The notes beneath the pieces were generated by a model. That model saw only the letters and a program-made list of their open reading frames with translations, was not told the origin of the DNA and ran no database searches. Of a stretch of DNA of 64,000 bases, positions 37,801 through 63,047 are shown piece after piece. The position numbers and the translations under genes are program-made. Source of the DNA: a virus; IMG/VR virus record IMGVR_UViG_3300045988_150292, positions 1 through 64,000 of that record; one strand, given 5' to 3'. How positions within the stretch are numbered: the stretch's first letter is position 1; every line of letters begins with the position of its first letter.

Positions 37801-38390
37801 CGGAGCTTCTCCTCTGCTTCCATCTGCTTCTGTAGGGCTTGGGCGAAGGCACGCGACTTCTGTTCGGCGGCGGCTATCTCCTGCCGGTATGCCTCCTGCG
37901 CCATCTGTGCGGAGATTTTCTGGCGTTCCTGCTTCTGCTTCTCAAGCTCCTCCTCCCTCTTGGCTTGCTGTTCCTGGGCATGGCGGCGTTGCTGTAAAAG
38001 TTCTTCAACGCGCTGCATGTCTTGGTAGTCGGAAAAACCTGCGTGGCCTTTCCCGGTTGCATTTATTCTTTGTAGTATTTGCAACACTTTCCCATATTGC
38101 TCTGCTATGGCGGTTATATTATTGACCGTCTTGGAATCAACCCCCAGACCCTCAGCTCTGGCGGCAAACGCCTGATATTGCGCTATAGCATCTTGCAGTT
38201 TCTTGATGTCGGCAACTCCCTTGCTGCTAAGGGTACTTGTTGCTTCCGTTATCAGATTCAGTGCGTCCTGGGCTCGCTTGCCGGTGACGTCAATCTTGTT
38301 GAGAGCGTTAATAAGCTTCTTGGATTCTTCCTCCATGCGCGTCTTCAACGTGAGCGTCATGCTCAAATCTCCTAAATTTCCTCCTGCCAT
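31818..38390 (-). CDS. Tail tape measure protein (2190 aa)
   Basis: Size, extensive coiled coil, and a TP901-type tape-measure core (VALRSIIGDIAKADELFAQTQQLALQSPFKFGEL...LGLAYGQVKARSWLDGKELRQFAYAGLPL). Lies downstream of the chaperone genes. Confidence 0.85.
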   Translation of the reverse strand: MAGGNLGDLSMTLTLKTRMEEESKKLINALNKIDVTGKRAQDALNLITEATSTLSSKGVADIKKLQDAIAQYQAFAARAEGLGVDSKTVNNITAIAEQYGKVLQILQRINATGKGHAGFSDYQDMQRVEELLQQRRHAQEQQAKREEELEKQKQERQKISAQMAQEAYRQEIAAAEQKSRAFAQALQKQMEAEEKLRRSRVGGTEFDRRRAVRASFASEPTRYYVPFAGNMDQINEVQKAYGKAFDALGERYDRLQQKISSFHGPKDDEWLVKTKAQLAEVESQMQRLVAASERLSMQTAARLDATYKPNATTPQEQAQRRLQETNALKNAILERMEAEKREAAEAAKNEKQRQAELDKSQQKIKALKDALNRLWGERQAGKALGLDTSEADAKIRSMISALRTLREYSNMLGNKGVGWQSSLGSLNYNYFGTLAEGAKRLSSEQAKANSEKRQAIALEERHRQEVAATAARVRSDLVSAFEQAKKSAGGMSSAVQDLKSLFLQGGLIYGAKQFADSIIQTGGEIVQQHVALRSIIGDIAKADELFAQTQQLALQSPFKFGELNRDVKQLAAFGVEANDLYDTTKRLADIASGLGVSFERLGLAYGQVKARSWLDGKELRQFAYAGLPLLKSIAEMYNETGRSGKTDYTESDIKKMISQRQVSFEDVQKVLWGMTDEGGKFYNMQLVLSNTLLGQWNKLIDAWDIMLGKFAEGNNVIGGVFTSIVKQAANLVLMLDKLSPALVSFGAMFALRKGLGAVAARTGIAQELTAMKAAQAAELRRYAIAQQRLLVEGKITQEELRQNLVARAGFLNGTINKRNAMEELAIKGKLSMLQMQRLVQERMISPELIKQLELMGMISSKQSELILKSGLIARSQLAWNQATSKLGSLLTGGNVAAVGAAVGAAIWMGYDQYTSKLEQSMENMRKSAEDHFKQLSDYVKGLPASPGEGDKIAGIDNMKDLLTQTGYFTDELNEQLEACGDINEEYDLLVSKTKESSENAKAQGQYTQMAANAMFESQRGGAWAGQYDILSRISDAAGLSEHGGVFGYISGLFNDDLEKNSNDLNNSLMKVSAQLDILSSDARSKLESVADAFLSPEQRVMSLEEKIAYLAKYNSDAWEEIVKRVANGDETTAKHLKNIGKAGKNMSKDLKEIAEDDFPKIMESWRKDLGMTESEFKTFCQRNPKKFQAMFDSLLSIANISAPKIREALKRMWYEAADMVVPETPKPKKPKGWTNPLREGTIGRKTYDKLEAAGLLKNKHRDMANVLFNIDQGKSSGWHEYGEAIRKQYKEWRDENNQARKAGEKQPYYYKMKLLEEAAAKIGVSLDVGKDKVSGDFGKDGGNKDDKVLKALKDKVSLYKTYYTELQKYRKLYGADADKELMKDKNFAPIKGYGLKDRSDYGGSIRQLVGRLPKNTEERKSFVEQSIAGISSKEREEEQKRIEDVNSELSRKLDLLSEEYDLYKQLYDLTGDSQGAMQVAFQGNTVQSQSLLQSLMKQIQDELDKSHPGTKAADVTALSDNDFNKLFGEKSEALSVLVQRYKKESDKVRLDTIKKMTDLIKDNRTLDQQIADLDREHESNQTKIWGSSTTTEMKKRASEGENKEWQDKRAKLEFEQFKNNTDWVTIFDDLDRVSSNTIDTMCTEIEKFSKKAGLSVEVVKQLRDALDKLRNEQIDRSPFGVMFNTIGQGNAIGDFLKRSEPGKDGKYIVSAEAGKRMGMQEGKYTKGELENGQQGKYTDFSKSLQSVANKFKALESIMSPVVDLFAAFGKEDTVAGGIIQGGSDALSAAGSTAGALNNLGLEQAGPYGAAAAAAISIISSFAAAHDAALEREIEASKQRQKEMENLTKNLQHAIEIALGGVYSYTMNDKTRDKLTEVLETFRKENTKFNFQTQKWEKTNKNKSRYSEQTAEQVEKSLQNKDSNFDAQLASLMVQRDELQKQRDSENNKKKKDKNAISDYDAQIEEANQQISEFAQEWAKTIYSIDLKDWASQLTDAIIEAWQKGEDAVDAYEDKVKELMNSLTKNILSQKILEVALKPTLDNLENKLKANGGKLEAEDVLSITDSLIDAEGNAIDSIVSILDSLKEKGLDLSENGSLSTSNTIKGVTEETADLLASYINAIRLDVSVNRANLSIVVEAVKLLPNLNVIAQSQLTQLNTLVSLSQARNDKLDQMYDWMRSTTNGTRKLYIA

Positions 38391-54042: not shown

Positions 54043-54589
54043 ATCAATTCTCTCTTCTCCTCATTTCACAATTATATTATACAATACGCTAAATACATCA
54101 AAACACACGCAAAAACATATGTAAAAACGTATATCCAATGTAAAAATGCACATTATGATTATTCAGTGCACACTTCTGAACATTGTAGAAGATTGACGTT
54201 TTTCATCAAGTCGTTGAAAACCAATGATTTACGAAATTATCCATACCCGTGGTTTTTTGCCTAACCCAATTTTAACTTCAATCTATTGTATAGCAAAGAT
54301 AAGAAAAATTTCTATAAATATGCAGAAGTACTTTAAAATAAGGGGATTATTATGCATTGTTAACATACATAATATGTAGGATAAATATGCTAAGACAAAA
54401 TCTGACATTTTGAGTGTTTGACCACACTCATATTTTCAAAACAAGCCCCTCTGTATACTTATGCAAAATAACAGGTGTTAACAATCAATGAATAAATCTT
54501 GACAATTAACCTAAATTTGCAGTTGAGAAAAACAAGAAAAAGAAAAAATTTTTGTGGGGTGAGTGACCGCGAAAGCGCCCATTTCCCAT

Positions 54590-54598
54590 GGGGGGGGG
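54590..54598 (+). repeat. Poly-G tract (9 nt) in a GC-rich islet of the AT-rich control region
   Basis: CCCATGGGGGGGGGTGGGTG, preceded by a CGC-GAAA-GCG tetraloop hairpin. Confidence 0.9.
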
Positions 54599-55003
54599 TG
54601 GGTGTCCTTCATTTTTGGTGTCATACCAACACTTATTAAACGTCTATCACACACGTTAAACTATGTTATTTTAGATAACCTTGTTTTGTAAAGATTTTTT
54701 CACACTTTGAAAACCCTTTGTTACTTTTGTAATTATATTTTGTAACCCTCTGTCCTTCAACCACTTACATCCGTATATTAATTCTTTTCTTTTGTATATA
54801 TATCCACAAAAGGCTGAATATTGTATAATTGTATTTACACACTCAAACGTTATCATTATTTAATTAAACTTATATAAAATTCACTCTGTTATTGACCCTC
54901 TTTTGTTAACACACCTTTCGTTTCTTAATTTATATTTTGTGTTTATTGTGTAACTTATTGAATATCAGTTATTTACACGTTAGGTTAAAAATCTAAATTT
55001 TTG

Positions 55004-55011
55004 TATATTTG
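55004..55011 (+). promoter_or_regulatory. -7 box TATATTTG; candidate promoter of the + strand early array
   Basis: Matches TAnnTTTG with a TTTTTG stretch just upstream. No + strand gene lies before it in the 1-kb gap. Confidence 0.45.
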
Positions 55012-55142
55012 TTTGGCAGCTACATATATTGTTAGTACCTTGGGGTACGTTCAGCGGAACGCATATATATACCTATGCTATAGGCGTATCTGGTTGTCTG
55101 GTAGAACCGATATTAAATCTGCCACTTAAATTACATAGAATT

Positions 55143-55433
55143 ATGGATATTATTTTAAGAAATGCTTTTTTCTTCGATGAAAAAACTGGAGTGTTAACAG
55201 ATGAGCTAACTACAGATTTTGTAAGGGCTTGCAAGGCGTGTGGCGTGTGGGAAACTTATGGCATCGTATGCCTCCCCAATCGTCTGTTACGTGTCATTTA
55301 CTTCGATGTTGCGGAATTTGATGAATACACTTTAAACGTGTGGCTGAAAAAATTCCCAGAAAATACTTGGGGGCTTGATGATGAACATCAAGCAATTGCC
55401 GTGGTATTCGCAGAGTACCCAATACCGTATTAA
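55143..55433 (+). CDS. Hypothetical early protein
   Basis: An internal ATG sits in the AGAATTATG context (MDIILRNAFFFDEK...). The track ORF begins at 55029. Confidence 0.5.
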   Translation: MDIILRNAFFFDEKTGVLTDELTTDFVRACKACGVWETYGIVCLPNRLLRVIYFDVAEFDEYTLNVWLKKFPENTWGLDDEHQAIAVVFAEYPIPY

Positions 55434-55443
55434 TTAATGGCAA

Positions 55444-55490
55444 TCCGTGTTAGTTCGAGGCTATACCGTGGTTCAAATCCATGGCACGGA
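55444..55490 (+). other. tRNA-like T-arm plus acceptor-like stem (not a complete tRNA)
   Basis: CCGTGG-TTCAAAT-CCATGG (55466-55484) is a canonical GGTTCAAATCC T-arm. It is enclosed by the stem TCCGTG(55444-55449)/CACGGA(55485-55490). No D arm or anticodon arm is present. Confidence 0.35.
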
Positions 55491-55495
55491 ACAAC

Positions 55496-55531
55496 GGCAA
55501 TATTGCCCAATAACTAAAAAAATTCAAAATT
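55496..55531 (+). promoter_or_regulatory. Hairpin + TAAC-box leader unit U0
   Basis: GGCAATATTGCC palindrome, then CAATAACTAAAAAAATTCAAAATT-ATG. Confidence 0.5.
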
Positions 55532-56050
55532 ATGAAAACTCTAAACGAACGTGTGAAAGATGTGGTGCGTACCGTTGTACTCGATGCGGATTATACGGAA
55601 TTAGGTGAACAATCTAAAGCCGTGCAAGAATGGCTACAGAATGATGCTAAATTCATTCAGTTGAAAAAAGCGTTAGAAGCCTACAGACTTAAGGCTTTTG
55701 CAGAAAACGCTGAGTACCAGAAAATAAGCCGTGCTACATTGTTCACCGCTTTTGTAGCGGTAGTAAAGTTGGTAAAAGGTGTCAACATTCCCGAAAACTA
55801 CCTAACTGAGGACGACGGTAATACCCTTGCGCGTCTTGCATCTGAGAATATATGTGATACAGATTCACGTATAGCTTCACTTATATGTCGGATTAACGAC
55901 ACCTTTAAGCCGGCAAAGGTTACACGTACAACAGAATTCATTCCGTACACTATTGCGGAAATTCGCAAATTGGTTGAACTCATTCAGTTGGGTATTTTGG
56001 AACGTGAAGCGGTGCGAAGACAAGTAAGAGAAGGAAAACGGAAACGTTAA
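55532..56050 (+). CDS. Hypothetical early protein
   Basis: 172-aa ORF with a basic C-terminus. Confidence 0.55.
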   Translation: MKTLNERVKDVVRTVVLDADYTELGEQSKAVQEWLQNDAKFIQLKKALEAYRLKAFAENAEYQKISRATLFTAFVAVVKLVKGVNIPENYLTEDDGNTLARLASENICDTDSRIASLICRINDTFKPAKVTRTTEFIPYTIAEIRKLVELIQLGILEREAVRRQVREGKRKR

Positions 56051-56072
56051 CCGCTACAGACAAGACAAAAAA

Positions 56073-56102
56073 AGGATTGCAATATATTGCAGTCCTTTTT
56101 TT
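56073..56102 (+). terminator. Intrinsic (bidirectional-type) terminator
   Basis: 10-bp stem AGGATTGCAA/TTGCAGTCCT, flanked by A7 upstream and T7 downstream. Confidence 0.8.
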
Positions 56103-56118
56103 GATACCAGATTTTTTT

Positions 56119-56144
56119 AGGGTGCCCAAATTGGGTACCCTTTG
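56119..56144 (+). terminator. Second hairpin terminator
   Basis: 9-bp stem AGGGTGCCC/GGGTACCCT, followed by TTTGTT. Confidence 0.5.
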
Positions 56145-56887
56145 TTATATCCTTTTTTTTCAGAGGATGAAGATTCTAAAAACTGTCTAAACCGACATTC
56201 CGTATATCTCAAGTAACGGAACACTTCCAGACGGAAATAAATTTCCGGAGGATGTGGCAGGTGAGAGGACAGACAGAGGGCAAACCTTCATAGTGATATG
56301 GAGGAGCGGAGGAGAAATCCCGTCGAGCTGTCGAGAAAATCAGGAAGGAGTCAAGCGAGCGTTTAAGCGTGCTAACTACCTTTTCCGAGTCAAGCCCTAC
56401 GCACTGAGTAGGAGTAGATGCAGGCACGGAGAGCAGGATCACGGCAAAAGTTGTACGGATCCCGCCACGATCCGAAGGCAAAGGAGAAGGCAAGAGCAGC
56501 CAGCAGAGGCAGGAGCGGAAACTCCCAGGAGAGCAACCCAATGCACCGTGGAGCCTGAGCCTAACATAAAGCGTTATGTGGGTATTGAGAATTAATCATA
56601 ATTCATATTCTATCGTATGAGCGTGCGAGGTGTGGTTAACCAGAAACGCTCAATATCCGTTATCCGTCACGTGTGGCGGAGCGAGTGAAGAAAGTAGATA
56701 CTGAACGGATTAATGAAATCTACCTGAAAGCGGTTATATGTGAGCCGTGTTACCCTTGAGTATGCAGCAGAAAAACATATCGGACCAATCTTGTTTAATT
56801 GGAGGGTGCCGAATGACGTGAGACATTTTGCAACGAGAGCAAAAGGAAATAGAGGCATCCTGGCTAATGGGGTTGAGAAATCAACCC
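56145..56887 (+). ncRNA. Candidate large structured non-coding RNA (class unknown; strand tentative)
   Basis: About 0.75 kb with no credible ORF in an otherwise tightly packed genome. GC content is like coding DNA and the + strand is purine-rich. It contains many short perfect hairpins: 56198-56221, 56232-56247, 56456-56474, 56564-56579, 56664-56679, and 56870-56887 (GAAA loop). Confidence 0.4.
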
Positions 56888-56917
56888 TACAATATAAACC
56901 ATTAAAATTGTAGAATT
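56870..56917 (+). promoter_or_regulatory. Hairpin + AACC-box leader unit U1
   Basis: GGGTTGA-GAAA-TCAACCC, then TACAATATAAACCATTAAAATTGTAGAATT-ATG. Confidence 0.55.
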
Positions 56918-57148
56918 ATGAAGAAGATTGCGTGCAGTTCATTGTGTGTGTTGTTTATCATTTTGGCGTGCTCCCTGATACCTGCCTATATCACAGGTGT
57001 CAGGGAGCTGCTGGATTCAGCCACACTGACGGAGATAGACTGGAGCCTGACAGTGTGGAGCGGTGTATTGTTCACCGTTTCCACTGCCTTCCTCGGTGTT
57101 GTCATTGCAGATGTGTTCATAACTGCATATCTGGCGGTAAAGAAGTAA
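56918..57148 (+). CDS. Small membrane protein
   Basis: 76 aa with two TM helices. Confidence 0.55.
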   Translation: MKKIACSSLCVLFIILACSLIPAYITGVRELLDSATLTEIDWSLTVWSGVLFTVSTAFLGVVIADVFITAYLAVKK

Positions 57149-57158
57149 AGCCTTAACG

Positions 57159-57238
57159 AGCAGGACATCGTGTAATGTGGTGTCCTGCTTTCATCATTAA
57201 CTGAATGATTTGGAATTTAATTTGAAAACTATAGAATT
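57159..57238 (+). promoter_or_regulatory. Hairpin + TAAC-box leader unit U2
   Basis: AGCAGGACA...TGTCCTGCT, then TTCATCATTAACTGAA...TATAGAATT-ATG. Confidence 0.55.
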
Positions 57239-57355
57239 ATGACAAACGACGAGATTTATTACGAGATGGCAGGCGGTTATATCTGCCTCTGCCATTATGG
57301 AGAGCAGCTCCCAGAGACTTCACCAGAGAGAGAAGGAAAGGAGGTGGCACTATGA
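57239..57355 (+). CDS. Very small protein (38 aa; below the track cutoff)
   Basis: MTNDEIYYEMAGGYICLCHYGEQLPETSPEREGKEVAL*. ATGA coupling to the next gene. Confidence 0.4.
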   Translation: MTNDEIYYEMAGGYICLCHYGEQLPETSPEREGKEVAL

Positions 57356-57588
57356 GAAGAGAGAAGATATATTCAAGTACGATAATTCTGCTTGGAATTA
57401 TTCAGGTGCTTCCAATTTTCCTGCTCCTGGGAAGTACGATAATTGGCGGTCTGCTTGGAGTGTTTTATGCCGTTCTGCTCTGGAAATTCTGGAGAAGTAC
57501 GAGAATTGGAAGATGGTTCATGCGAGAGTGGTGGCGTTCCACGCTGCTGCTTGAGAGGATCATCTTCGGAGGCAATGCAGAGTGTTGA
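57352..57588 (+). CDS. Small membrane protein
   Basis: 78 aa with two TM helices. Confidence 0.5.
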   Translation: MRREKIYSSTIILLGIIQVLPIFLLLGSTIIGGLLGVFYAVLLWKFWRSTRIGRWFMREWWRSTLLLERIIFGGNAEC

Positions 57589-57620
57589 AATTCTGCGGTG
57601 AAAATGCCGGAGCCTGAAAA

Positions 57621-57667
57621 CTGCCTGTAATCCGGGCAGTACGATAATAACTAAAAACGAAAGAATT
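57621..57667 (+). promoter_or_regulatory. Hairpin + TAAC-box leader unit U3
   Basis: CTGCC...GGCAG, then TACGATAATAACTAAAAACGAAAGAATT-ATG. Confidence 0.5.
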
Positions 57668-57841
57668 ATGAAAGTATTGATTAGAGAAAGGTATTTTACA
57701 GACAAGTTCACCTGCAACGAGTTTTACAGAGAACATGTCATTACACGCATGGAAGAGCGTGGAGATATGTACCAGTTGTATCAGGGTGCATATACATACA
57801 TGTGTGTCCCAAAAAGTGACATTATAAATATAGAATCATGA
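57668..57841 (+). CDS. Small protein (57 aa; below the track cutoff)
   Basis: MKVLIRERYFTDKFTCNEFYREHVITRMEERGDMYQLYQGAYTYMCVPKSDIINIES*. Confidence 0.45.
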   Translation: MKVLIRERYFTDKFTCNEFYREHVITRMEERGDMYQLYQGAYTYMCVPKSDIINIES

Positions 57842-57990
57842 AAACAAGAAGACAGGCAGCCATGGAGCTGCTTCCATTGTATAATTCAATGGAAACAAGG
57901 AAAATCACATTAGGCACTCTCGCAAGGAAAATGTATAAGTGCGGTGATTGCTGGAGATGTACCGGTGTTGGCTACGACTACACCGTGTAA
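57838..57990 (+). CDS. Small Cys-containing protein (50 aa)
   Basis: ATGA overlap with the upstream gene. Contains ...KMYKCGDCWRCTGVGYDYTV*. Confidence 0.45.
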   Translation: MKTRRQAAMELLPLYNSMETRKITLGTLARKMYKCGDCWRCTGVGYDYTV

Positions 57991-57997
57991 GCCAAAA

Positions 57998-58050
57998 AAG
58001 GCAGTACGATAATCTGTGCTGCCTTCATTGTCTAACTAAAACTTTGAATT
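57998..58050 (+). promoter_or_regulatory. Hairpin + TAAC-box leader unit U4
   Basis: AAGGCAG...CTGCCTT, then CATTGTCTAACTAAAACTTTGAATT-ATG. Shares GGCAGTACGATAAT with U3. Confidence 0.55.
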
Positions 58051-58377
58051 ATGGAATATATCAGAACAAAAGAGTATGACACGCCCATCGACGTGTATTT
58101 CGACGGAGAGAAGTACGTTTTCATCAACCGCTTCATCGGTCTCGTTGCCGTTGCCAGAAGAAAAGGGACATCGGCATTCTCCGATGACGGGAACACCTGT
58201 TATTCCACATTCTCAGTGGAGCACACTGACGGCATCTGCAAGGAGACGATAATAAAGGTGATACAGAAGCAGGAGAGCCAGTATCTCCCGTGCAGCGTCG
58301 CCTACAAATGGAAGGAGGAGCAGAAATATTCCTCTCTTCGTTACTCTGTCTCCGTGAAGCTGGAGAGAATGGGATAA
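58051..58377 (+). CDS. Hypothetical early protein
   Basis: 108-aa ORF. Confidence 0.55.
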   Translation: MEYIRTKEYDTPIDVYFDGEKYVFINRFIGLVAVARRKGTSAFSDDGNTCYSTFSVEHTDGICKETIIKVIQKQESQYLPCSVAYKWKEEQKYSSLRYSVSVKLERMG

Positions 58378-58387
58378 GCCTGAACGG

Positions 58388-58443
58388 TCCTCACCTCAAA
58401 AAGGTGGGGATTTCTTTTTACTAACCCTAAAAAAAGAAGAATT
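58388..58443 (+). promoter_or_regulatory. Hairpin + TAACC-box leader unit U5
   Basis: TCCTCACC-TCAAAAA-GGTGGGGA, then TTTCTTTTTACTAACCCTAAAAAAAGAAGAATT-ATG. Confidence 0.6.
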
Positions 58444-58806
58444 ATGAGAACAAGAAAGTACAAGACCCTGACAGGGCTGCTGAAGGCATACGACAGAAAG
58501 CAGTTCACAATGAACGATTTCTTGTCTGGACGAATCTATGACGGCTACAAGACATTTAAGTTTGAACTGTCTGACGAAGCCCTAAGAGAATTGTCCGACG
58601 GCTTTTGTTATGCCTGCAACTGCCAGAAATCAAAACGCGACACGGTTTTCTTCAACATGAAATTCCATAAGATATTGAACCGTGGTATTCTGGACAGGCT
58701 ATGGGTGGAGTTATGGAATGGCAAACCGAGCTTCACCTTCTGCGTAGGACAGGACGGAGATTATGAGTATCCGCTTGTTAGAAGAACCCTATATCGGGGT
58801 TATTGA
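58444..58806 (+). CDS. Hypothetical early protein
   Basis: 120-aa ORF. Confidence 0.55.
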   Translation: MRTRKYKTLTGLLKAYDRKQFTMNDFLSGRIYDGYKTFKFELSDEALRELSDGFCYACNCQKSKRDTVFFNMKFHKILNRGILDRLWVELWNGKPSFTFCVGQDGDYEYPLVRRTLYRGY

Positions 58807-58813
58807 GCCAAAT

Positions 58814-58869
58814 GGCGTACATTTCCAAGTGTGCGCCTCATTTTACTAACCCTTTAAAACATTAGAATT
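58814..58869 (+). promoter_or_regulatory. Hairpin + TAACC-box leader unit U6
   Basis: GGCGTAC...GTGCGCC, then TCATTTTACTAACCCTTTAAAACATTAGAATT-ATG. Confidence 0.6.
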
Positions 58870-60438
58870 ATGATTTTTATTAAAAGTTTCAAAAACTACG
58901 AAGAGTTCAAGAAGTTGTTTGCAATCGTGGAACACGGCAACGGAGCCAAGTCTCGCAAGAACAAGATTCTGCTTGCATGGCTCAAGGACAGACGCTTCCT
59001 CAAGGCGTGGCTCTCTTTCCAGAGGACCATGCTGAACAAAGGACTGGTGGCTGAAGAGTTCGTCTACAAATACGATTATCTTAACGCCAGAAGTATGGAC
59101 GATGTGAAAAAAGCCGTTCTCCGTATCTCGGAGTCATTCGCCGCATATCATTTTGACGGCGGACAACCTCAATGGATGGAGAATTACGGACCTTTTGTCC
59201 TTAACGACTGGCCATTGCGCCACCGGACTCTCTATATCGACAGCCGCCACGGGTTGTGTGCCGACGGAGACACGAAATCCGTCCGCTACATCAATTCAGA
59301 GCGTGGCGACAGGGTGTTCAAGATGAAGGCAGGAAAATTCATAACTTCCTGTCTCGACAGCCTGCCGTTCACAGAAATCCTACCTGAACAGGTCAAACGA
59401 TGGATAGGCGAGGAGTTCGCCCGTGACTGGCAGGTATATGCAGAGTCCCTTATCGGAGAGTCTGCGTTGACGCTCCACGTGGGATCTGACAAAAGCGACT
59501 TTGAGACCATCTACGACAAAAACCTATACAAGGGAGATTTCCACTCCTGTATGGGAGGCGAGGACCAATACTTCTTCTATGCCGACGCCGTGGATGCCAG
59601 CGCAGCATGGCTGACAGACAGTGACGGAATGATAGTGGCACGTTGTGTCATCTTCAATGACGTCATAGACGAGGAAGGGAAATCCTGGAGACTGGCAGAG
59701 CGTCAATACTCGTCCGATATGGACGAAGTTCTAAAGCAGACGCTTGTGAACAGACTCATCAAGGAAGGCCTCATCGACGGCTACAAGCGTGTCGGTGTCG
59801 ATTGTCACGACAACAGGAATTTCGTCGCCAACAACGGCGAGTCCCTGAGGGCGAAGCGGTTCTCTATCGAATGCCGGCTGTGCGATGGTGATACGTTGTC
59901 GTATCAGGACAGCTTTGTCTGTTACGACTACAACAAGGACATCGCATACAATCATTCCGATGTATACTACACCGACGATCTGGACGTAACCAATCATCAT
60001 TTCTACTGTTCACACGACAACGAAAGATGGTCGGACTATTCGCAAGAGTGGATCGCCGATAATGTCGCCGAGTATGACGACTATCACGAGGACTGGATGC
60101 ACGAGGACTGTTCGACTGATGCTATATATAACGGACACCACATCCATATCAACGAATACCGCACGAATGATTTCGTGTGGTCTGAAGAGGAAGACTGCTA
60201 CATCTATGAGGATGAGGCGGTATGGGTTGAAAACCTCAACGACGACATCCTCAGAAGAAACGCCGTCGAGGACATCCACGGAGAGTGGCAGCGTGCAAAC
60301 GATTGTGTGCACTCTGCATATCACGATGAGTACATCCTCAAAGAGGATGCTATTTACTCCGAAGTCCTCGAAGACTGGTTCGAAGACGAGGATACGATGC
60401 ACGAAGCAGAGAAAGAAGAACTTGAAGTAGAAGCCTGA
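58870..60438 (+). CDS. Large early protein with a hyper-acidic, aromatic-rich C-terminal third
   Basis: 522 aa. The last ~170 aa are dominated by D/E/Y/W/H (DDYHEDWMHEDC..., EEEDCYIYEDEAVWVENLNDD..., EDWFEDEDTMHEAEKEELEVEA). No family recognised. Confidence 0.6.
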   Translation: MIFIKSFKNYEEFKKLFAIVEHGNGAKSRKNKILLAWLKDRRFLKAWLSFQRTMLNKGLVAEEFVYKYDYLNARSMDDVKKAVLRISESFAAYHFDGGQPQWMENYGPFVLNDWPLRHRTLYIDSRHGLCADGDTKSVRYINSERGDRVFKMKAGKFITSCLDSLPFTEILPEQVKRWIGEEFARDWQVYAESLIGESALTLHVGSDKSDFETIYDKNLYKGDFHSCMGGEDQYFFYADAVDASAAWLTDSDGMIVARCVIFNDVIDEEGKSWRLAERQYSSDMDEVLKQTLVNRLIKEGLIDGYKRVGVDCHDNRNFVANNGESLRAKRFSIECRLCDGDTLSYQDSFVCYDYNKDIAYNHSDVYYTDDLDVTNHHFYCSHDNERWSDYSQEWIADNVAEYDDYHEDWMHEDCSTDAIYNGHHIHINEYRTNDFVWSEEEDCYIYEDEAVWVENLNDDILRRNAVEDIHGEWQRANDCVHSAYHDEYILKEDAIYSEVLEDWFEDEDTMHEAEKEELEVEA

Positions 60439-60440
60439 AA

Positions 60441-60500
60441 AAAGGCGGGAGATGTAATGCTCCTGCCTTTACATCATTAACCATTAAAACATTTAGAATT
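60441..60500 (+). promoter_or_regulatory. Hairpin + TAACC-box leader unit U7
   Basis: AAAGGCGGGAG...CTCCTGCCTTT, then ACATCATTAACCATTAAAACATTTAGAATT-ATG. Confidence 0.6.
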
Positions 60501-61442
60501 ATGAAAGAAAAATTGAATTACGAGTTACTTAAAGATCTGTACTGCATCCATTCAAAAAGCGGCAGCGAGAAACGCATCCGTCGATTCATCAAGAAATGGC
60601 TAAAAGCTAATGTTCCTGAAGCTGTCGTGACACAGGACAATATAGGAAACCTCTACATCACGAAAGGTGTTGCGGTTAATTACCCCTGCCTGTGCGCACA
60701 CATGGACCAGGTGCAGGATTTCCATCCTTCTGACTTCACTTGTGTGGAGACTGACGAGGTCATTTTCGGCTATTCGCCCAAGATGCGCAAGCAGTGCGGA
60801 CTGGGAGCCGACGACAAGAACGGGATATTCCTTGCGCTCTCTGCGCTGATGGAATACCCTGTCCTCAAATGTGCCTTCTTCATCGGAGAGGAAATCGGCT
60901 GCATCGGCTCAAGCGCCGCAGACATCGGCTTCTTCATAGACTGCCGTTTCTGCGCCCAGATTGACAGGCGTGGAAGCAGTGACATGGTGACAGAAATCTC
61001 CGGTCCGCTCTGCTCAGATGGTTTCATCAAGGCTGCGGACTGCGAGAGCTGGGGCTACCATGAGTCCGGCGGAATGATGACGGACGTAGAGGCGCTTGCA
61101 GAAGCCGGTGTCAGCGTGTCGTGCATCAATCTGTCCTGCGGATATTACGATCCGCACACCGACTGCGAGTTCACCCACAAGCCCGACCTTGAGAAATGCT
61201 GGGCTTTCGTATGCCATCTCATAGAGGACTGCACTGCGGTCTATCCGTTCGAATACACAAACGGATGTCAAGGTTCAACAAGAACTTTTTACGTCAAAGA
61301 CAGTCTCTTATATGAGATGGAATGTGTCCTTGCAGAAGAACCGAATACCACATTCAGAGACTTCTACGACAACGTGGGATGTATGTATTCTGAGGTCAGT
61401 AGAGAAAGTCAGCACATACTGTTCGACTTTGCTAAGAAGTAA
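60501..61442 (+). CDS. Zinc metallopeptidase-like protein (M20/M28/M42 clan pattern)
   Basis: The ordered ligand-like motifs CAHMDQV, GLGADDKNG, GEEIGCIGS and YDPHT are typical of co-catalytic aminopeptidases. Confidence 0.5.
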   Translation: MKEKLNYELLKDLYCIHSKSGSEKRIRRFIKKWLKANVPEAVVTQDNIGNLYITKGVAVNYPCLCAHMDQVQDFHPSDFTCVETDEVIFGYSPKMRKQCGLGADDKNGIFLALSALMEYPVLKCAFFIGEEIGCIGSSAADIGFFIDCRFCAQIDRRGSSDMVTEISGPLCSDGFIKAADCESWGYHESGGMMTDVEALAEAGVSVSCINLSCGYYDPHTDCEFTHKPDLEKCWAFVCHLIEDCTAVYPFEYTNGCQGSTRTFYVKDSLLYEMECVLAEEPNTTFRDFYDNVGCMYSEVSRESQHILFDFAKK

Positions 61443-61451
61443 GCCTTAAAG

Positions 61452-61508
61452 AGCCCTGCTCCTCACGGAGTGGGGCTTCCTATTTTCTAACCTTTAAATT
61501 TCAAGAAT
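61452..61508 (+). promoter_or_regulatory. Hairpin + TAACC-box leader unit U8
   Basis: AGCCCTGCTCC-TCAC-GGAGTGGGGCT, then TCCTATTTTCTAACCTTTAAATTTCAAGAAT-ATG. Confidence 0.6.
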
Positions 61509-62186
61509 ATGGACAAGAAAAAGTACATTGAAATTCTGTCTTCCGAGGCGGAGAAGAACGGCAGGCCACAAGAGTCTGCCCTGGATGATTTCCTCGACTA
61601 CGTGATAGACTATTTCGACGTCAAGAGCCTGCAGTCCGGTATGGACTCATACGGCAATCACATTCTGGAGCAGAGGCGCAAATCGCACGGCTTCTTCAAT
61701 CTTGTCATAATGTGGCTTCAAGATGTCGCCAAGGCTATGGAGCGTGGAGAATGGCTCGATGTGTTCGGCATTCTTTATGAGGAGATGTACCTCTCTCGCG
61801 GCAAGGCTTCACGCACGGGACAGTTCTTCACTCCCCAGTGCGTGTCAGGCCTCATGGCTCAGGTAATCGACACCGGCAAGGAATGTGGCACGGTCAACGA
61901 CTGCGCTTCCGGCAGCGGACGTCTCCTTCTCGCCCATTATATCAGCAAGAGCAGGACGGATCATTATGCCGGACGCCGCTTCAAGTATGTGGCGCAGGAT
62001 TGCGATCCTATCGCCTGCAAGATGTGCGCCTGCAACATGATGGCGCACGGAATGTACGGAATGGTCATCTGCCAGAACACTCTGACGATGAGCGTGCCCT
62101 CCGTTGTGTACTACATCAACGAGGCTAAATATCCGTTCGACACACCTTACTGCTCCATCCGTGCGGTACGCAACGAAAAAGCCTGA
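61509..62186 (+). CDS. HsdM/N6-methyltransferase-like SAM-binding protein with no recognisable catalytic motif IV
   Basis: FGILYEEMY...TGQFFTPQCVSGLMAQVI, motif I VNDCASGSGRLLLA, and YVAQDCDPIACKMCACNMMAHG. The protein ends ~35 aa after CQNTLTM with no (N/D)PP(F/Y/W). Confidence 0.55.
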   Translation: MDKKKYIEILSSEAEKNGRPQESALDDFLDYVIDYFDVKSLQSGMDSYGNHILEQRRKSHGFFNLVIMWLQDVAKAMERGEWLDVFGILYEEMYLSRGKASRTGQFFTPQCVSGLMAQVIDTGKECGTVNDCASGSGRLLLAHYISKSRTDHYAGRRFKYVAQDCDPIACKMCACNMMAHGMYGMVICQNTLTMSVPSVVYYINEAKYPFDTPYCSIRAVRNEKA

Positions 62187-62190
62187 AACG

Positions 62191-62228
62191 GCCTCCCCTG
62201 TGGAGGCACATGTTTAACCAATTAAAAA
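62191..62228 (+). promoter_or_regulatory. Hairpin + TAACC-box leader unit U9
   Basis: GCCTCC-CCTGT-GGAGGC, then ACATGTTTAACCAATTAAAAA(ATG)ATT-ATG. Confidence 0.6.
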
Positions 62229-62447
62229 ATGATTATGAATACGAATTTAAAAATTGCGCAGTGTGGAATCAGTGATGTTGTCGGTGGCAGAATGTGGTTT
62301 TGTGTAAAGCCCGACAATCCGCGTAAGGTTGAACGTTTTTATACAAAGAGAGAGTGCGAGGCGTATATACGCAAAGAACATAATTCTAATCCTTATCTTC
62401 TGAAAGAATTGCGTAATACTCATGGCAGAGCTTTTATTTACGCCTAA
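62229..62447 (+). CDS. Small early protein
   Basis: 72 aa. An alternative start at 62235 fits the ATTATG context. Confidence 0.5.
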   Translation: MIMNTNLKIAQCGISDVVGGRMWFCVKPDNPRKVERFYTKRECEAYIRKEHNSNPYLLKELRNTHGRAFIYA

Positions 62448-62450
62448 AAA

Positions 62451-62496
62451 CAGAGAGTTTGTGCTCTCTGACATTATTAACCAAAATTCAGAATTT
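62451..62496 (+). promoter_or_regulatory. Hairpin + TAACC-box leader unit U10
   Basis: CAGAGAG-TTTGTG-CTCTCTG, then ACATTATTAACCAAAATTCAGAATTT-ATG. Confidence 0.65.
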
Positions 62497-62769
62497 ATGA
62501 GAAAGATAAAATGTGACTACCATTATGTAGACAACCTCGTCGCACGATACGAAGAGAAGGGAGGATATGCCATACAGCTCAATGAGGGTTCGCTCGCTTC
62601 TGGCGACTGGATTCTGTACGACGACACAGGGAAGCTGAAATGCTTCTATATCTACGAGGAAGCTCTCAGCTCATGGGCTTCTTGCCAGATCGTACAGGTT
62701 TACAGGGACTGGAACGGATTCCCGAAGAAATACAAGAAGATGGTGGAATCCTGCTGTGTCTACGCCTAA
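62497..62769 (+). CDS. Small early protein
   Basis: The start is moved to MRKIKCDYHY. The track start at 62422 would read through the hairpin and box. Confidence 0.5.
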   Translation: MRKIKCDYHYVDNLVARYEEKGGYAIQLNEGSLASGDWILYDDTGKLKCFYIYEEALSSWASCQIVQVYRDWNGFPKKYKKMVESCCVYA

Positions 62770-62772
62770 AAA

Positions 62773-62819
62773 CAGAGGGAGCAATCCCTCTGCCATTATT
62801 AACCAAATTATCAAGAATT
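62773..62819 (+). promoter_or_regulatory. Hairpin + TAACC-box leader unit U11
   Basis: CAGAGGGA-GCAA-TCCCTCTG, then CCATTATTAACCAAATTATCAAGAATT-ATG. The flanks are near-identical to U10 while the stem has compensatory changes. Confidence 0.65.
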
Positions 62820-63047
62820 ATGAAGAGATTTTACGTATCAGTCACAGAGACTTTAAACAAGGTAGTAAGTGTAGATGCCGAGAACGAGAAAGACGCATTG
62901 GAACAAGTAAAAGCAGCCTACTATGATTCGGCTATTGTTCTTGATTCTGACAATTTCTGTGGAGAAACTATAGAGATTGAAGACGACCAGCAGTTCTATA
63001 TCGACTATGAGAAGGACTACGGCAAAACCTATCAGCACGTAGACTGA
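62820..63047 (+). CDS. Small early protein
   Basis: The start is moved to [14 protein letters not shown]... (75 aa). Confidence 0.5.

Follow-up and report, generated by a model that had tools for sequence, protein, structure and literature searches.

The window analysed here, a stretch of viral DNA of 64,000 nucleotides, carries on its plus strand an operon of mostly orphan genes in which a long gene-free stretch precedes the ATG at 56918. The features on either side of this stretch are the following:

55143-62822 (+): operon in which most genes are orphans and the gene starts have the cassette hairpin-UAACY-N11-17-(U)AGAAUUAUGA in common; the proposed target set of the RNA described below
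55143, 55532, 56918, 57239, 57668, 58051, 58444, 58870, 60501, 61509, 62820 (+): start codons of the operon
56073-56102 (+): terminator 1, of the upstream 172-aa gene, with the hairpin GGATTGCAATATATTGCAGTCC between an A-run and a T-run
56119-56160 (+): second terminator-like hairpin (56119-56141), then the T-rich box TCCTTTTTTTT (56150-56160)
56889-56921 (+): spacer with an AACC box (56897-56900) and the start site UAGAAUUAUGA (56911-56921; ATG 56918)

The initial annotation had placed two tandem terminators upstream, and both were recovered, the first by reading the sequence (hairpin at 56074-56095 followed by seven T residues) and the second by a terminator scan. Since its hairpin is flanked by an A-run and a T-run, terminator 1 could act both ways; it lies outside the RNA, and in an Rfam E-value scan it matched only terminator-containing families, for example Thr_leader. 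In every subtype the T-rich box (YCCTTATTTTT in relatives) directly precedes the first structured element; it could be either the U-tract of a terminator or a Bacteroidetes -7-like promoter box. A sigma-70 promoter scan is uninformative for this phylum, and the motif TTTG-N19-21-TA found upstream of the box in some subtypes is absent in the window.

That no credible gene lies here proved correct. Between 56145 and the ATG at 56918 all six frames are interrupted by several stops, of two or more kinds in each, and therefore no single stop-codon reassignment opens a frame. The two overlapping ORFs (56254-56595 on the plus and 56209-56541 on the minus strand), already dismissed in the initial annotation, have no Pfam match, and a GTG start at 56740 is lost in relatives (GTG to GTC). 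A conserved coding frame in homologs would have refuted an RNA, yet none was found, indels not being multiples of three and whole domains being swapped. A protein-coding gene, whether standard, recoded or frameshifted, was rejected on the same grounds, each frame holding stops of two or three kinds. The peculiar composition was also borne out: GC content is coding-like (0.50-0.55 at 56200-56600 versus 0.24-0.33 in the other large intergenic gap), and on the plus strand purines make up 58-61% of the stretch as against 48.7% of the whole window. The description of the genome as having almost no other non-coding space needs a qualification, as this second sizeable gap exists at 54043-55030.

A tRNA-like T-arm reported upstream (55444-55492) is real as a fold but is not called a tRNA by ARAGORN. 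This program found neither tRNA nor tmRNA in the window and no tRNA in 30 related loci; only sporadic mini tRNA-like folds are present. An identity as tRNA or tmRNA was accordingly discarded, and the suggested tRNA association in the style of GOLLD and ROOL fails.

A modular family of large phage RNAs

Our data support the conclusion that positions 56183-56888 of the plus strand encode a member of a previously undescribed family of large RNAs. The stretch initially delimited, 56145-56890, stands as gene-free RNA sequence with its borders corrected to about 56183-56888. The family comprises at least 135 distinct sequences in gut-phage contigs from human-gut metagenomes (two scans of viral contigs gave 110 and more than 120 matches) and ranges in length from ~0.6 to 0.9 kb, the window copy measuring ~0.75 kb. 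The carriers are temperate siphovirus-like phages of the human gut, and their hosts are probably Bacteroidales. Searches of GenBank phages by blastn and megablast with the region, the surrounding 20 kb and a commoner subtype gave zero matches, and a scan of bacterial genome contigs with GAGTATGCAGCAGNAAAAC returned 22 chance matches and no family member, hence the host remains unidentified. We found no description of the RNA or its motif sequences in the literature searched, nor on targeted inspection of PMC10879173, PMC10690425 and a 2026 Minerva bioRxiv preprint; it may be one of the candidates left unnamed in the IMG/VR catalogue of PMC10690425.

The proposal of a large structured plus-strand RNA outside the named classes is backed by covariation and by an empty Rfam 15 result, the whole window giving no match at gathering score. 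At E<=10 the segments 55350-57250, 56140-56345 and 56580-56925 yielded only terminator or snoRNA-type noise, and 14 relatives gave one sub-threshold HDV-like match and nothing else. GOLLD, ROOL, HEARO, raiA, OLE and all other Rfam 15 families were set aside for want of a gathering-score match. A group I or II intron was also rejected: the upstream gene ends in a stop followed by two terminators, the downstream gene has its own start and no Rfam model matches.

Read from 5′ to 3′, a variable 5′ module and a conserved junction are followed by an exchangeable purine-rich domain, then by the invariant 18-mer AUCAUAAUUCAUAUUCUA and a 3′ domain with pseudoknots, and the RNA ends in a hairpin. This modular, domain-swapping architecture was missing from the initial annotation. 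Leaving aside the 18-mer, the elements are:

56183-56277 (+): window-type 5′ module; CUGUC (56183-56187) pairs with GACAG (56268-56272), enclosing three elements
56198-56221 (+): 5′ module hairpin UUCCGU/ACGGAA
56222-56228 with 56250-56256 (+): 5′ module helix CACUUCC/GGAUGUG
56232-56247 (+): 5′ module hairpin CGGAAA-UAAA-UUUCCG
56272-56339 (+): conserved junction, GACAG-AGGGCAAAC, then a GNRA hairpin, GAGCGGAGGAGAAAUCCCGUCGAG (56305-56327) and the closing CUGUC (56328-56332)
56285-56304 (+): junction GNRA hairpin CCUUCAUA-GUGA-UAUGGAGG
56340-56585 (+): exchangeable purine-rich central domain, 246 nt
56370-56373 with 56495-56498 (+): central domain long-range helix UGCU/AGCA
56379-56386 with 56483-56490 (+): central domain long-range helix CCUUUUCC/GGAGAAGG
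56396-56412, 56456-56474 and 56564-56579 (+): central domain hairpins
56613-56651 (+): pseudoknot and hairpin with conserved loop, with covariation
56619-56624 with 56646-56651 (+): helix b GAGCGU/ACGCUC, interleaved with a short helix a
56629-56641 (+): hairpin GGU-GUGGUUA-ACC
56652-56721 (+): subtype-specific middle arm
56655-56660 with 56705-56710 (+): middle arm helix AUCCGU/ACGGAU
56664-56679 (+): middle arm hairpin CCGUCA-CGUG-UGGCGG
56694-56699 with 56718-56723 (+): middle arm helix GUAGAU/AUCUAC
56722-56809 (+): core of the 3′ domain, beginning after CUGAAAGCGGUU and including the conserved sequence GAGUAUGCAGCAG
56730-56733 with 56745-56748 (+): helix Hc GCGG/CCGU, interleaved with H1
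56736-56741 with 56775-56780 (+): helix H1 AUAUGU/ACAUAU
56751-56753 with 56760-56762 (+): helix Hd UAC/GUA
56785-56789 with 56798-56802 (+): helix Hb CCAAU/AUUGG
56804-56888 (+): 3′ three-way junction and terminal hairpin, with covariation
56804-56810 with 56854-56860 (+): three-way junction helix GGGUGCC/GGCAUCC, with inner hairpin UUUUGC/GCAAAA
56858-56867 (+): conserved sequence UCCUGGCUAA
56869-56888 (+): terminal GNRA hairpin GGGGUUGA-GAAA-UCAACCC(U)

The six hairpins initially listed are all present, and five of them keep their pairing through compensatory or G-U/A-U changes in alignments or sequences of relatives. Since the folding energy of the single sequence is modest (z = -2.0 for the plus and -0.9 for the minus strand), the case for a conserved structure rests on comparative data. 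A lack of covariation would have spoken against it; strong covariation was found instead, backing at least 12 helices, among them three interleaved (pseudoknot) pairs. In four pair-count analyses 93-97% of the cells are paired, versus 72-88% in shuffled and 25-59% in slid controls, and in none of the four was the observed covariation score reached by any of 500 shuffles. A covariance model (R1), bearing on the core of the 3′ domain, finds the window with 89 bits (E = 7e-19) and also recovers two non-seed relatives (E = 1e-8 and 3e-6), with nothing from chance loci. Conserved G-U pairs and GNRA loops identify the plus strand as the RNA strand and, as they occur on this strand only, make the alternative of a DNA-level element unlikely.

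The evidence is distributed over the whole molecule. The helices of the 5′ module, which has no Rfam match in the window, are kept through changes in relative L163 (UCCCGC/GCGGA, UGGAA/UUCCA and GGAU/AUCC, from alignments and sequences). The closing helix of the junction covaries (GACAG/CUGUC, GCUAUCC/GGGUAGC, GGUAUC/GAUACC, GGGCGUC/GAUGCCC), its GNRA hairpin appears in relatives as CGUUCCAU-GCGA-AUGGAGCG or CGUUCCGU-GUGA-AUGGAGCG, and 54 of 136 members contain the motif GGCAAAC...AAUCCCGUCG. Homologues of the central domain in L163 and L138/L143 show 13 pairs with compensatory change, and two relatives (L002, L003) have this domain swapped for an unrelated, also structured, domain of 165 nt. 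The middle arm of L002 has a G to A change which converts a U-G into a U-A pair; in other subtypes the arm is different and contains GUGAGGUAUAUCC. For the pseudoknot at 56613-56651, 92.6% of the cells are paired versus 72% in shuffles, with compensatory changes in 9 of 11 pairs and none of 500 shuffles scoring as high (18 sequences). One analysis of the 3′ domain core gave 92.6% paired cells and 11 of 17 compensatory pairs; with 24 distinct sequences these values were 96.8% (74% in shuffles) and 11 of 13. At 56804-56888 the paired fraction of 95.4% exceeds that of shuffles (88%) and of slid controls (39-59%), and 10 of 24 pairs are compensatory.

In about half of the subtypes the 5′ module has the fold of an HDV-like self-cleaving ribozyme, which heads the RNA of many relatives and was invisible to a reader of the window alone, the window subtype carrying a different module. 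The criterion applied was a nested double pseudoknot P1-P2-P3-P4, with a 7-bp P1 from the cleavage site, a P3 hairpin, P4, a P2 formed by J1/2 and the 3′ tail, and a conserved C in J4/2; only relatives satisfy it. In these sequences both P1 and P3 are predicted, and P1 covaries at three compensatory positions of the alignment. P2 and P4 differ between types, P2 occurring as UUUUGG/CCAAAA, UCUGUAA/UUACAGA, UUUUCGG/CCGAAAA, UUUUCAG/CUGAAAA (L151) and UUUUCAAU/AUUGAAAA, and J4/2 reads G(G/A)C(U/A)AA. Positions 51-124 of one relative (L222) match RF02682 with 38.3 bits (E = 2e-5 in a 900-nt search), below the gathering score of 44 bits; no match of this type was found at E<=1 in other sequence types of the same element, and none in the window. 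Cleavage itself is inferred from the fold, in the absence of cleavage data.

An invariant 18-mer complementary to start sites

A single segment of the RNA is invariant in sequence and non-helical, an 18-mer, hereafter the seed, which the initial annotation overlooked together with its complementarity to the neighbouring start context, the context itself having been noted:

56595-56612 (+): invariant seed AUCAUAAUUCAUAUUCUA, with two half-sites
56596-56604 (+): half-site 1 UCAUAAUUC, complement of GAAUUAUGA
56604-56612 (+): half-site 2 CAUAUUCUA, complement of UAGAAUAUG

Read as its reverse complement, the seed gives the start context (UAGAAUUAUGA / GAAUAUG) common to nearly every gene of the downstream operon. 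It is present in 110 viral contigs, versus ~10 chance matches for a pattern of similar length, and 81 of 84 distinct members chosen by an independent anchor contain the exact 18-mer amid rewritten flanking helices. In the window, 8-11 contiguous bases complementary to the seed are found at 10 of the 14 operon genes versus 4 of 21 and 2 of 19 in other gene sets, and GAATTATG occurs 12 times (2.2 expected), nine of these at ORF starts between 55143 and 62820. The same association holds across 75 distinct relatives, where four start-site 8-mers occur at 2.39 per kb on the RNA's strand in the 6 kb downstream, compared with 0.013 per kb on the opposite strand, 0.057 upstream on the same strand and ~0.06 by chance.

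One divergent relative (L015) has a matched change in seed and start sites: all six of its downstream genes start with GAUUAUGA, and its seed is altered to contain UCAUAAUC. Scanning IMG/VR for this seed variant returned 44 chance matches and L015's own contig only, so that the co-variation remains a single evolutionary event. The start-site variants UAGAUUAUG, GGAUUAUG and GAAAUAUG are not compensated by seed changes, which means that the seed is more conserved than any single target.

The criterion for an antisense regulator, a conserved unpaired segment complementary to target start regions, is satisfied. Accessibility predictions place the seed no higher than average to moderately high (0.42-0.82 unpaired), a point against this role. 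In RNAfold calculations nearly all representatives pair the seed with the first start site (9-13 pairs expected). The start site UAGAAUUAUGA of the first downstream gene is thus the predicted partner of the seed in cis, and a functional tie of the RNA to positions 56911-56921, an addition to the initial account of the element, is our inference from these predictions; no pairing data are available. Bacteroidetes ribosomes favour an A-rich start context, Kozak-like contexts being found in the phylum, and part of the recurrence of the start motif could therefore be ordinary.

A second possible contact involves the conserved loop at 56629-56641, in which GGUUA complements the UAACY box of the gene-start cassettes. 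The box precedes 8 of 14 operon genes versus 6 of 21 and 2 of 19 in other gene sets (2.5% background). We treat this pairing as suggestive and weak, since the box is fairly common before the phage's other genes too.

Possible roles of the RNA and related systems

The reading we favour, on which we find belief and doubt evenly balanced, is that of a co-transcribed antisense regulator which masks the start sites of the operon and so exerts operon-wide translational control; the function is untested, and both the pairing and the direction of regulation are inferred. The RNA heads an operon of small accessory or early genes. The terminal hairpin always lies ~30 nt from the next ATG and, there being no terminator before the first gene, the RNA is presumably on the same transcript as the downstream genes, a transcription for which expression data are lacking. 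In about half of the subtypes its 5′ end would be freed by the HDV-like ribozyme. The seed half-sites, antisense to the two variants of the start context, would pair across the start codons. With the first gene this would happen in cis and close the 3′ domain; with the remaining genes it would be in cis or in trans. Such pairing would mask the start codons from ribosomes and make the RNA an operon-wide translational repressor or timer, while the large folded domains would add stability or bind a partner not yet known. As each transcript carries one seed for ~10 start sites, repression would require the RNA to accumulate. Against antisense regulation it can be said that a simple antisense regulator needs neither 700 nt nor several pseudoknots, which leaves most of the molecule unexplained, and that the window subtype lacks the ribozyme and has no identified promoter behind its two terminators.

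More tentatively, the ~10-nt context of nearly every operon gene might constitute a private start-site code, read by a ribozyme-processed 0.7-kb RNA machine that would dock on all start sites to time, protect or route translation in a host phylum devoid of Shine-Dalgarno pairing. The device could be RNA-only or ribonucleoprotein-like, going beyond a passive antisense plug.

A purely cis-acting giant leader, whose seed-start helix closes the 3′ domain and gates the first downstream gene only, by fold-back inhibition or by riboswitch-like sensing of an unknown signal, appears unlikely to us, although the fixed distance to the next ATG without a terminator between and the RNAfold closure of the 3′ domain through this helix would suit it, and the inability of the 5′ strand to drift would follow if its 3′ partner strand is constrained as a start site. 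The similar starts of the later genes would then be incidental. The downstream gene is non-homologous between subtypes, variants of the adjacent start site are uncompensated in the seed, and the two half-sites match two start-site variants spread across the whole operon, none of which is expected of such a leader. We also see little likelihood in a stand-alone ornate RNA unrelated to the start sites (a self-assembling scaffold, ribozyme or protein sponge with the 18-mer as a protein-binding or multimerisation site). It would fit the size, the many pseudoknots, the conserved unpaired nucleotides, the phage location and the 5′ ribozyme processing in relatives, and ROOL, GOLLD and OLE indeed form RNA-only multimers (PMC12286853); it leaves unexplained both the ~40-fold enrichment of seed-complementary starts in the downstream operon and the matched change in L015, and neither its sequence nor any model match relates the RNA to ROOL or GOLLD.

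The position of the RNA at the head of the operon and the G+C-rich hairpin followed by a U-rich stretch before almost every gene also recall processive antitermination elements such as HK022 put, which would here modify RNA polymerase to read through the hairpins separating the operon genes. We think this improbable, as put is ~70 nt long and needs no anti-start-site sequence, so that the seed complementarity is unexplained, and as a proper U-tract is missing from many hairpins between the genes (a terminator scan finds few). Hardly tenable, and largely refuted by covariation, is the idea that the locus is no RNA gene, being instead a decayed or recoded protein gene or a DNA site (origin, pac or operator) with a protein-bound inverted start cassette: a primase gene and an AT-rich region do lie 2-3 kb away and TAACC-N21-TAGAATATGAATTATGA on the minus strand resembles a gene-start cassette, yet no frame opens under any single reassignment, the small minus-strand ORF following the pseudo-start within the seed has 4, 12 or 35 codons in three subtypes (window, L103 and L093, by eye) and is unconserved, and compensatory changes maintain RNA pairs, the G-U pairs among which would read C-A on the opposite strand.

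Large structured RNAs of bacteria and phages are rare and most are without a known target. The present RNA, widespread in the gut, comes with a hypothesis that is immediately testable because the only part of its sequence that is invariant is antisense to the starts of the genes in the operon behind it. Bacteroidales initiate translation without Shine-Dalgarno pairing, and their post-transcriptional control is little known. If antisense regulation is correct, the phages of this order would possess an RNA-based, operon-wide translational control system, the RNA would offer a new pseudoknot-rich fold for structural work, and some of the 'orphan' HDV-like ribozymes of non-coding phage DNA would acquire a function. 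Non-coding phage DNA is reported to contain 493 such (theta) ribozymes of unknown role (PMC10879173).

The relatives of our RNA share with the HDV-like ribozymes of gut phages (HDV-F-prausnitzii, RF02682; theta, PMC10879173) the fold and the G(G/A)C(U/A)AA sequence of J4/2, but the ribozyme is here merely the 5′-end module of some subtypes, sub-threshold in Rfam and missing from the window copy. GOLLD and ROOL resemble the RNA in being very large, pseudoknotted, borne by phages or prophages, of unknown function and endowed with variable peripheral domains. They differ in host range and core, their models do not match and adjacent true tRNAs are missing here, whereas the present RNA offers an obvious candidate target sequence.

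Closer in proposed function is the c4 antisense RNA of phages P1 and P7 (immI operon c4-icd-ant), a 77-nt RNA with one target that is encoded ahead of its targets within one operon, excised from the common transcript by RNase P and complementary through short segments to a downstream translation start region. The temperate phage, the upstream position in the targets' operon and the complementarity to a translation start region are common to both. In contrast to c4, of which there is no Rfam match, the present RNA has 600-900 nt and several pseudoknots, faces ~10 matching start sites and has an HDV-like ribozyme in place of RNase P processing; it would be a much larger analogue. It would likewise be a counterpart of the RegA protein of phage T4, a single phage factor recognising an AU-rich, AUG-overlapping sequence of many early mRNAs and shutting them off, with the difference that the recogniser would be an RNA using Watson-Crick pairing. 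With base-pairing small RNAs it shares an invariant single-stranded seed that complements start regions in a group of mRNAs, but it exceeds them tenfold in size, belongs to one operon with its proposed targets and faces near-identical target sites.

A widespread structured RNA family without known relative

The initial annotation had proposed a large structured RNA in a gene-free stretch, and what it said of the locus agrees with our analysis. No gene lies between position 56050, where the 172-aa gene ends, and the ATG at 56918, terminator-like hairpins precede the stretch at about 56074-56102 and 56119-56141, the GC content is coding-like (0.50-0.55 versus the AT-rich gap at 54043-55030) and the + strand is purine-rich (58-61% versus 48.7% in the window). 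The two long ORFs, already dismissed as genes, have no Pfam match. Since each frame of either strand is interrupted by multiple stops, of two kinds or more, no single stop reassignment opens a frame. Single-sequence folding gave only a modest gain over shuffles (z = -2.0 for the + strand, -0.9 for the - strand), and we therefore searched for relatives.

Two neighbouring genes, the one upstream and the primase, gave access to close IMG/VR relatives, and primase homologs in a large protein collection to further contigs. The latter have gene-free gaps of 0.7-1.7 kb at the equivalent position, with diverged RNA copies in L091, L093, L097, L098, L330, L332 and L333; one divergent relative, L015, has a primase 59% identical. 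The aligned relatives share a 5′, a central and a 3′ block, the central one being swapped wholesale in some, and a constant 18-mer, ATCATAATTCATATTCTA (the seed, 56595-56612, +). A scan of viral contigs for the 18-mer gave 110 stretches, against ~10 chance matches for a pattern of similar length. A second anchor from the 3′ domain, unrelated to the 18-mer, has at least 120 viral-contig matches, and among the matches listed 81 of 84 distinct members chosen by it carry the identical 18-mer. The collection comprises 135 distinct members (25 clusters at 96% identity), and among the family members from a metagenome scan are contigs labelled human gut metagenome assemblies. The closest cultured phages by primase (~30% identity) infect Bacteroides, Phocaeicola and Parabacteroides; integrases encoded in L097 and L330 point to temperate phages.

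Downstream of the 18-mer the sequence differs from subtype to subtype while base pairing is preserved. This was counted independently in four alignments of RNA parts, each against shuffles and slid controls.

Helices and pair counts in the four alignments
A7, 18 sequences: short helix a interleaved with helix b, hairpin with loop GUGGUUA; 92.6% of cells paired (shuffles 72%, slid 28-51%); compensatory 9/11
A5, 12 sequences: H1, Hd, Hb, and Hc interleaved with H1; 92.6% (shuffles 73%, slid 25-51%); compensatory 11/17
A6, 13 sequences: long-range helix, inner helix, terminal hairpin; 95.4% (shuffles 88%, slid 39-59%); compensatory 10/24
A10, 24 distinct sequences fitted to model R1: H1, Hd, Hb; 96.8% (shuffles 74%, slid 27-43%); compensatory 11/13

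In none of the four did any of 500 shuffles match the observed covariation score, which bears out the proposed structured RNA. A5 served to build the covariance model R1, which finds the window with 89 bits (E = 7e-19), recovers L097 and L098, both absent from the seed alignment, and does not match chance loci. A third interleaved pair, Ha/Hb, directly before UAGGGUG was seen by eye and is not countable in one register. The RNA strand must be the + strand because only there are conserved G-U pairs and GNRA tetraloops (GUGA/GCGA, GAAA) found. The window's purine-rich central domain is structured as well: GGAGAAGG, a run of purines, is paired with CCUUUUCC located 100 nt upstream, and homologs in L163 and L138/L143 preserve 13 pairs via double changes. 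Of 136 members, 54 have a conserved junction, GGCAAAC-hairpin-...AAUCCCGUCG, closed by a helix that covaries.

The architecture is modular. L107, L108 and L129 retain the seed together with the first hairpins and, at the end, the GGCAA/GGCUAA hairpin; their R1-recognised core is replaced by a longer, different insert (3′ domain of ~400-430 nt), so that the 3′ domain is modular too.

As the initial annotation had supposed, the RNA falls in no named class: Rfam 15 has no match at gathering score in the whole window, and at E<=10 the RNA sub-regions give only terminator or snoRNA-type noise. We found no similar DNA in GenBank phage records and no description of the family in the literature searched, motif sequences included. 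Parts of it may be present, without a name, in an IMG/VR catalogue of structured-RNA candidates (PMC10690425).

ARAGORN calls no tRNA or tmRNA in the window. The T-arm fold noted earlier does exist (55444-55492, +), but it too escapes ARAGORN. Such mini tRNA-like folds adjoin the large RNA sporadically, lying ~214 nt upstream of the seed in L098 and ~402 nt in L138, L143 and L111. Each combines an acceptor-like stem with a 7-nt-loop hairpin (UUCGAGG, UCAAAGG or UUAAAGG) and a T-arm whose loop reads UUCRANY; a D-arm is absent, and none is called by ARAGORN. They may serve as attP cores or as signals for RNase P/Z processing.

Elsewhere the window has three consecutive giant ORFs on the - strand (21144-25208, 25229-30727 and 31818-38390; 1354, 1832 and 2190 aa). 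Large-terminase genes reach 714-936 aa in some relatives versus 538-551 aa in others (L095 16926-17557; L099 10895-13183; L101 8114-10258). One long gene has a LAGLIDADG match, and L095 has a NUMOD homing-endonuclease gene close by; the extra length probably reflects inserted inteins or homing elements.

An invariant 18-mer antisense to the operon's start sites

The RNA heads an operon, and the reverse complement of its 18-mer is the start context of neighbouring genes, a context already noticed in the initial annotation: UCAUAAUUC pairs with GAAUUAUGA and CAUAUUCUA with UAGAAUAUG. The window holds 12 copies of GAATTATG (2.2 expected), nine of them marking + strand ORF starts within 55143-62820. 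Stretches of at least 8 contiguous bases (8-11) complementary to the seed occur in 10/14 operon genes versus 4/21 and 2/19 in other gene sets. Across 75 distinct relatives, four start-site 8-mers reach 2.39 per kb on the RNA strand in the 6 kb downstream, compared with 0.013 on the opposite strand, 0.057 upstream on the same strand, 0.33 upstream on the opposite strand, and ~0.06 expected by chance. In L015 all six of 6 downstream genes start with GAUUAUGA, and its seed, AAUCAUAAUUCAUAAUCAU, contains the exact complement UCAUAAUC. As this is the sole such seed variant in IMG/VR, we count the matched change as one event.

A cassette of G+C-rich hairpin, UAACY box, A/U-rich spacer of 11-17 nt and (U)AGAAUUAUGA precedes almost every gene of the operon (55143-62822, +) and of the RNA-downstream operons in L015, L093, L330 and L333. 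The hairpin loop GUGGUUA is complementary, in correct antiparallel order, to the UAACY box 11-17 nt upstream of the start context; this is weak evidence, since the box precedes other phage genes fairly often too. The cassette resembles the repeated promoter-stem-loop units of hyperplastic regions in T4-like phages and may drive gene shuffling too. Only two operon genes have family matches, the rest being orphans: 60501-61442 (+) matches a PHROG peptidase family (phrog_4191, E = 2e-47) and 61509-62186 (+) the unknown-function phrog_5696 (E = 6e-22), with weaker DNA-methyltransferase-like matches (from E = 1e-10).

The 5′ end of the RNA

When 14 relatives were scanned by E-value, the only match was to the HDV-like ribozyme family RF02682, exactly at the RNA 5′ end in L222 (38.3 bits, gathering 44; E = 2e-5). 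About half of the clusters carry this element, in four sequence types. P3 does not vary and P1 shows covariation; P2 and P4 vary between types with complementarity retained, including a G-C to A-U swap in P2 of one close-relative pair. Judged by sequence, many relatives have an HDV-like fold here, a putative self-cleaving ribozyme. The window subtype does not; its 5′ module is unlike the ribozyme type, also covaries and has no Rfam match. A survey of theta ribozymes, HDV-like elements of gut phages, listed 493 non-tRNA-associated non-coding matches of unknown biological function (PMC10879173), and some of these may be the present element.

Every subtype has a conserved T-rich box, YCCTTATTTTT (TCCTTTTTTTT in the window, 56150-56160), directly 5′ of the first structured element or putative cleavage site. 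In some subtypes a TTTG 19-21 nt upstream of its TA recalls the spacing of Bacteroidetes -33/-7 promoters. If the box were a promoter, the ribozyme would cut off only a few nucleotides plus the 5′ triphosphate. Separately, the gene-free, very AT-rich 1-kb gap at 54043-55030 (GC 0.24-0.33) divides the divergently oriented primase gene from the + strand operon and probably contains divergent promoters, perhaps also a replication origin.

Proposed function

We infer that the RNA would be co-transcribed with the operon, trimmed at its 5′ end, and would mask the operon's start sites as an operon-wide repressor or timer. The case for this model is about evenly balanced, because it leaves most of the RNA's size and complexity unexplained. 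The RNA might instead be a cis-only gate acting on the first gene. In nearly all representatives RNAfold predicts the seed to be paired with the first start site downstream; start-site variants adjoining the RNA show no compensating seed change, which argues that many targets, not one, hold the seed constant. It might also be an ornate RNA with a role unrelated to start sites, or an antitermination element. Covariation and strand asymmetry contradict a non-RNA element and essentially exclude it.

For start-site masking by an RNA, the closest precedents would be c4, an antisense RNA of phages P1 and P7 with the same layout but only 77 nt long and with one target, and T4 RegA, which shares the logic but is a protein.
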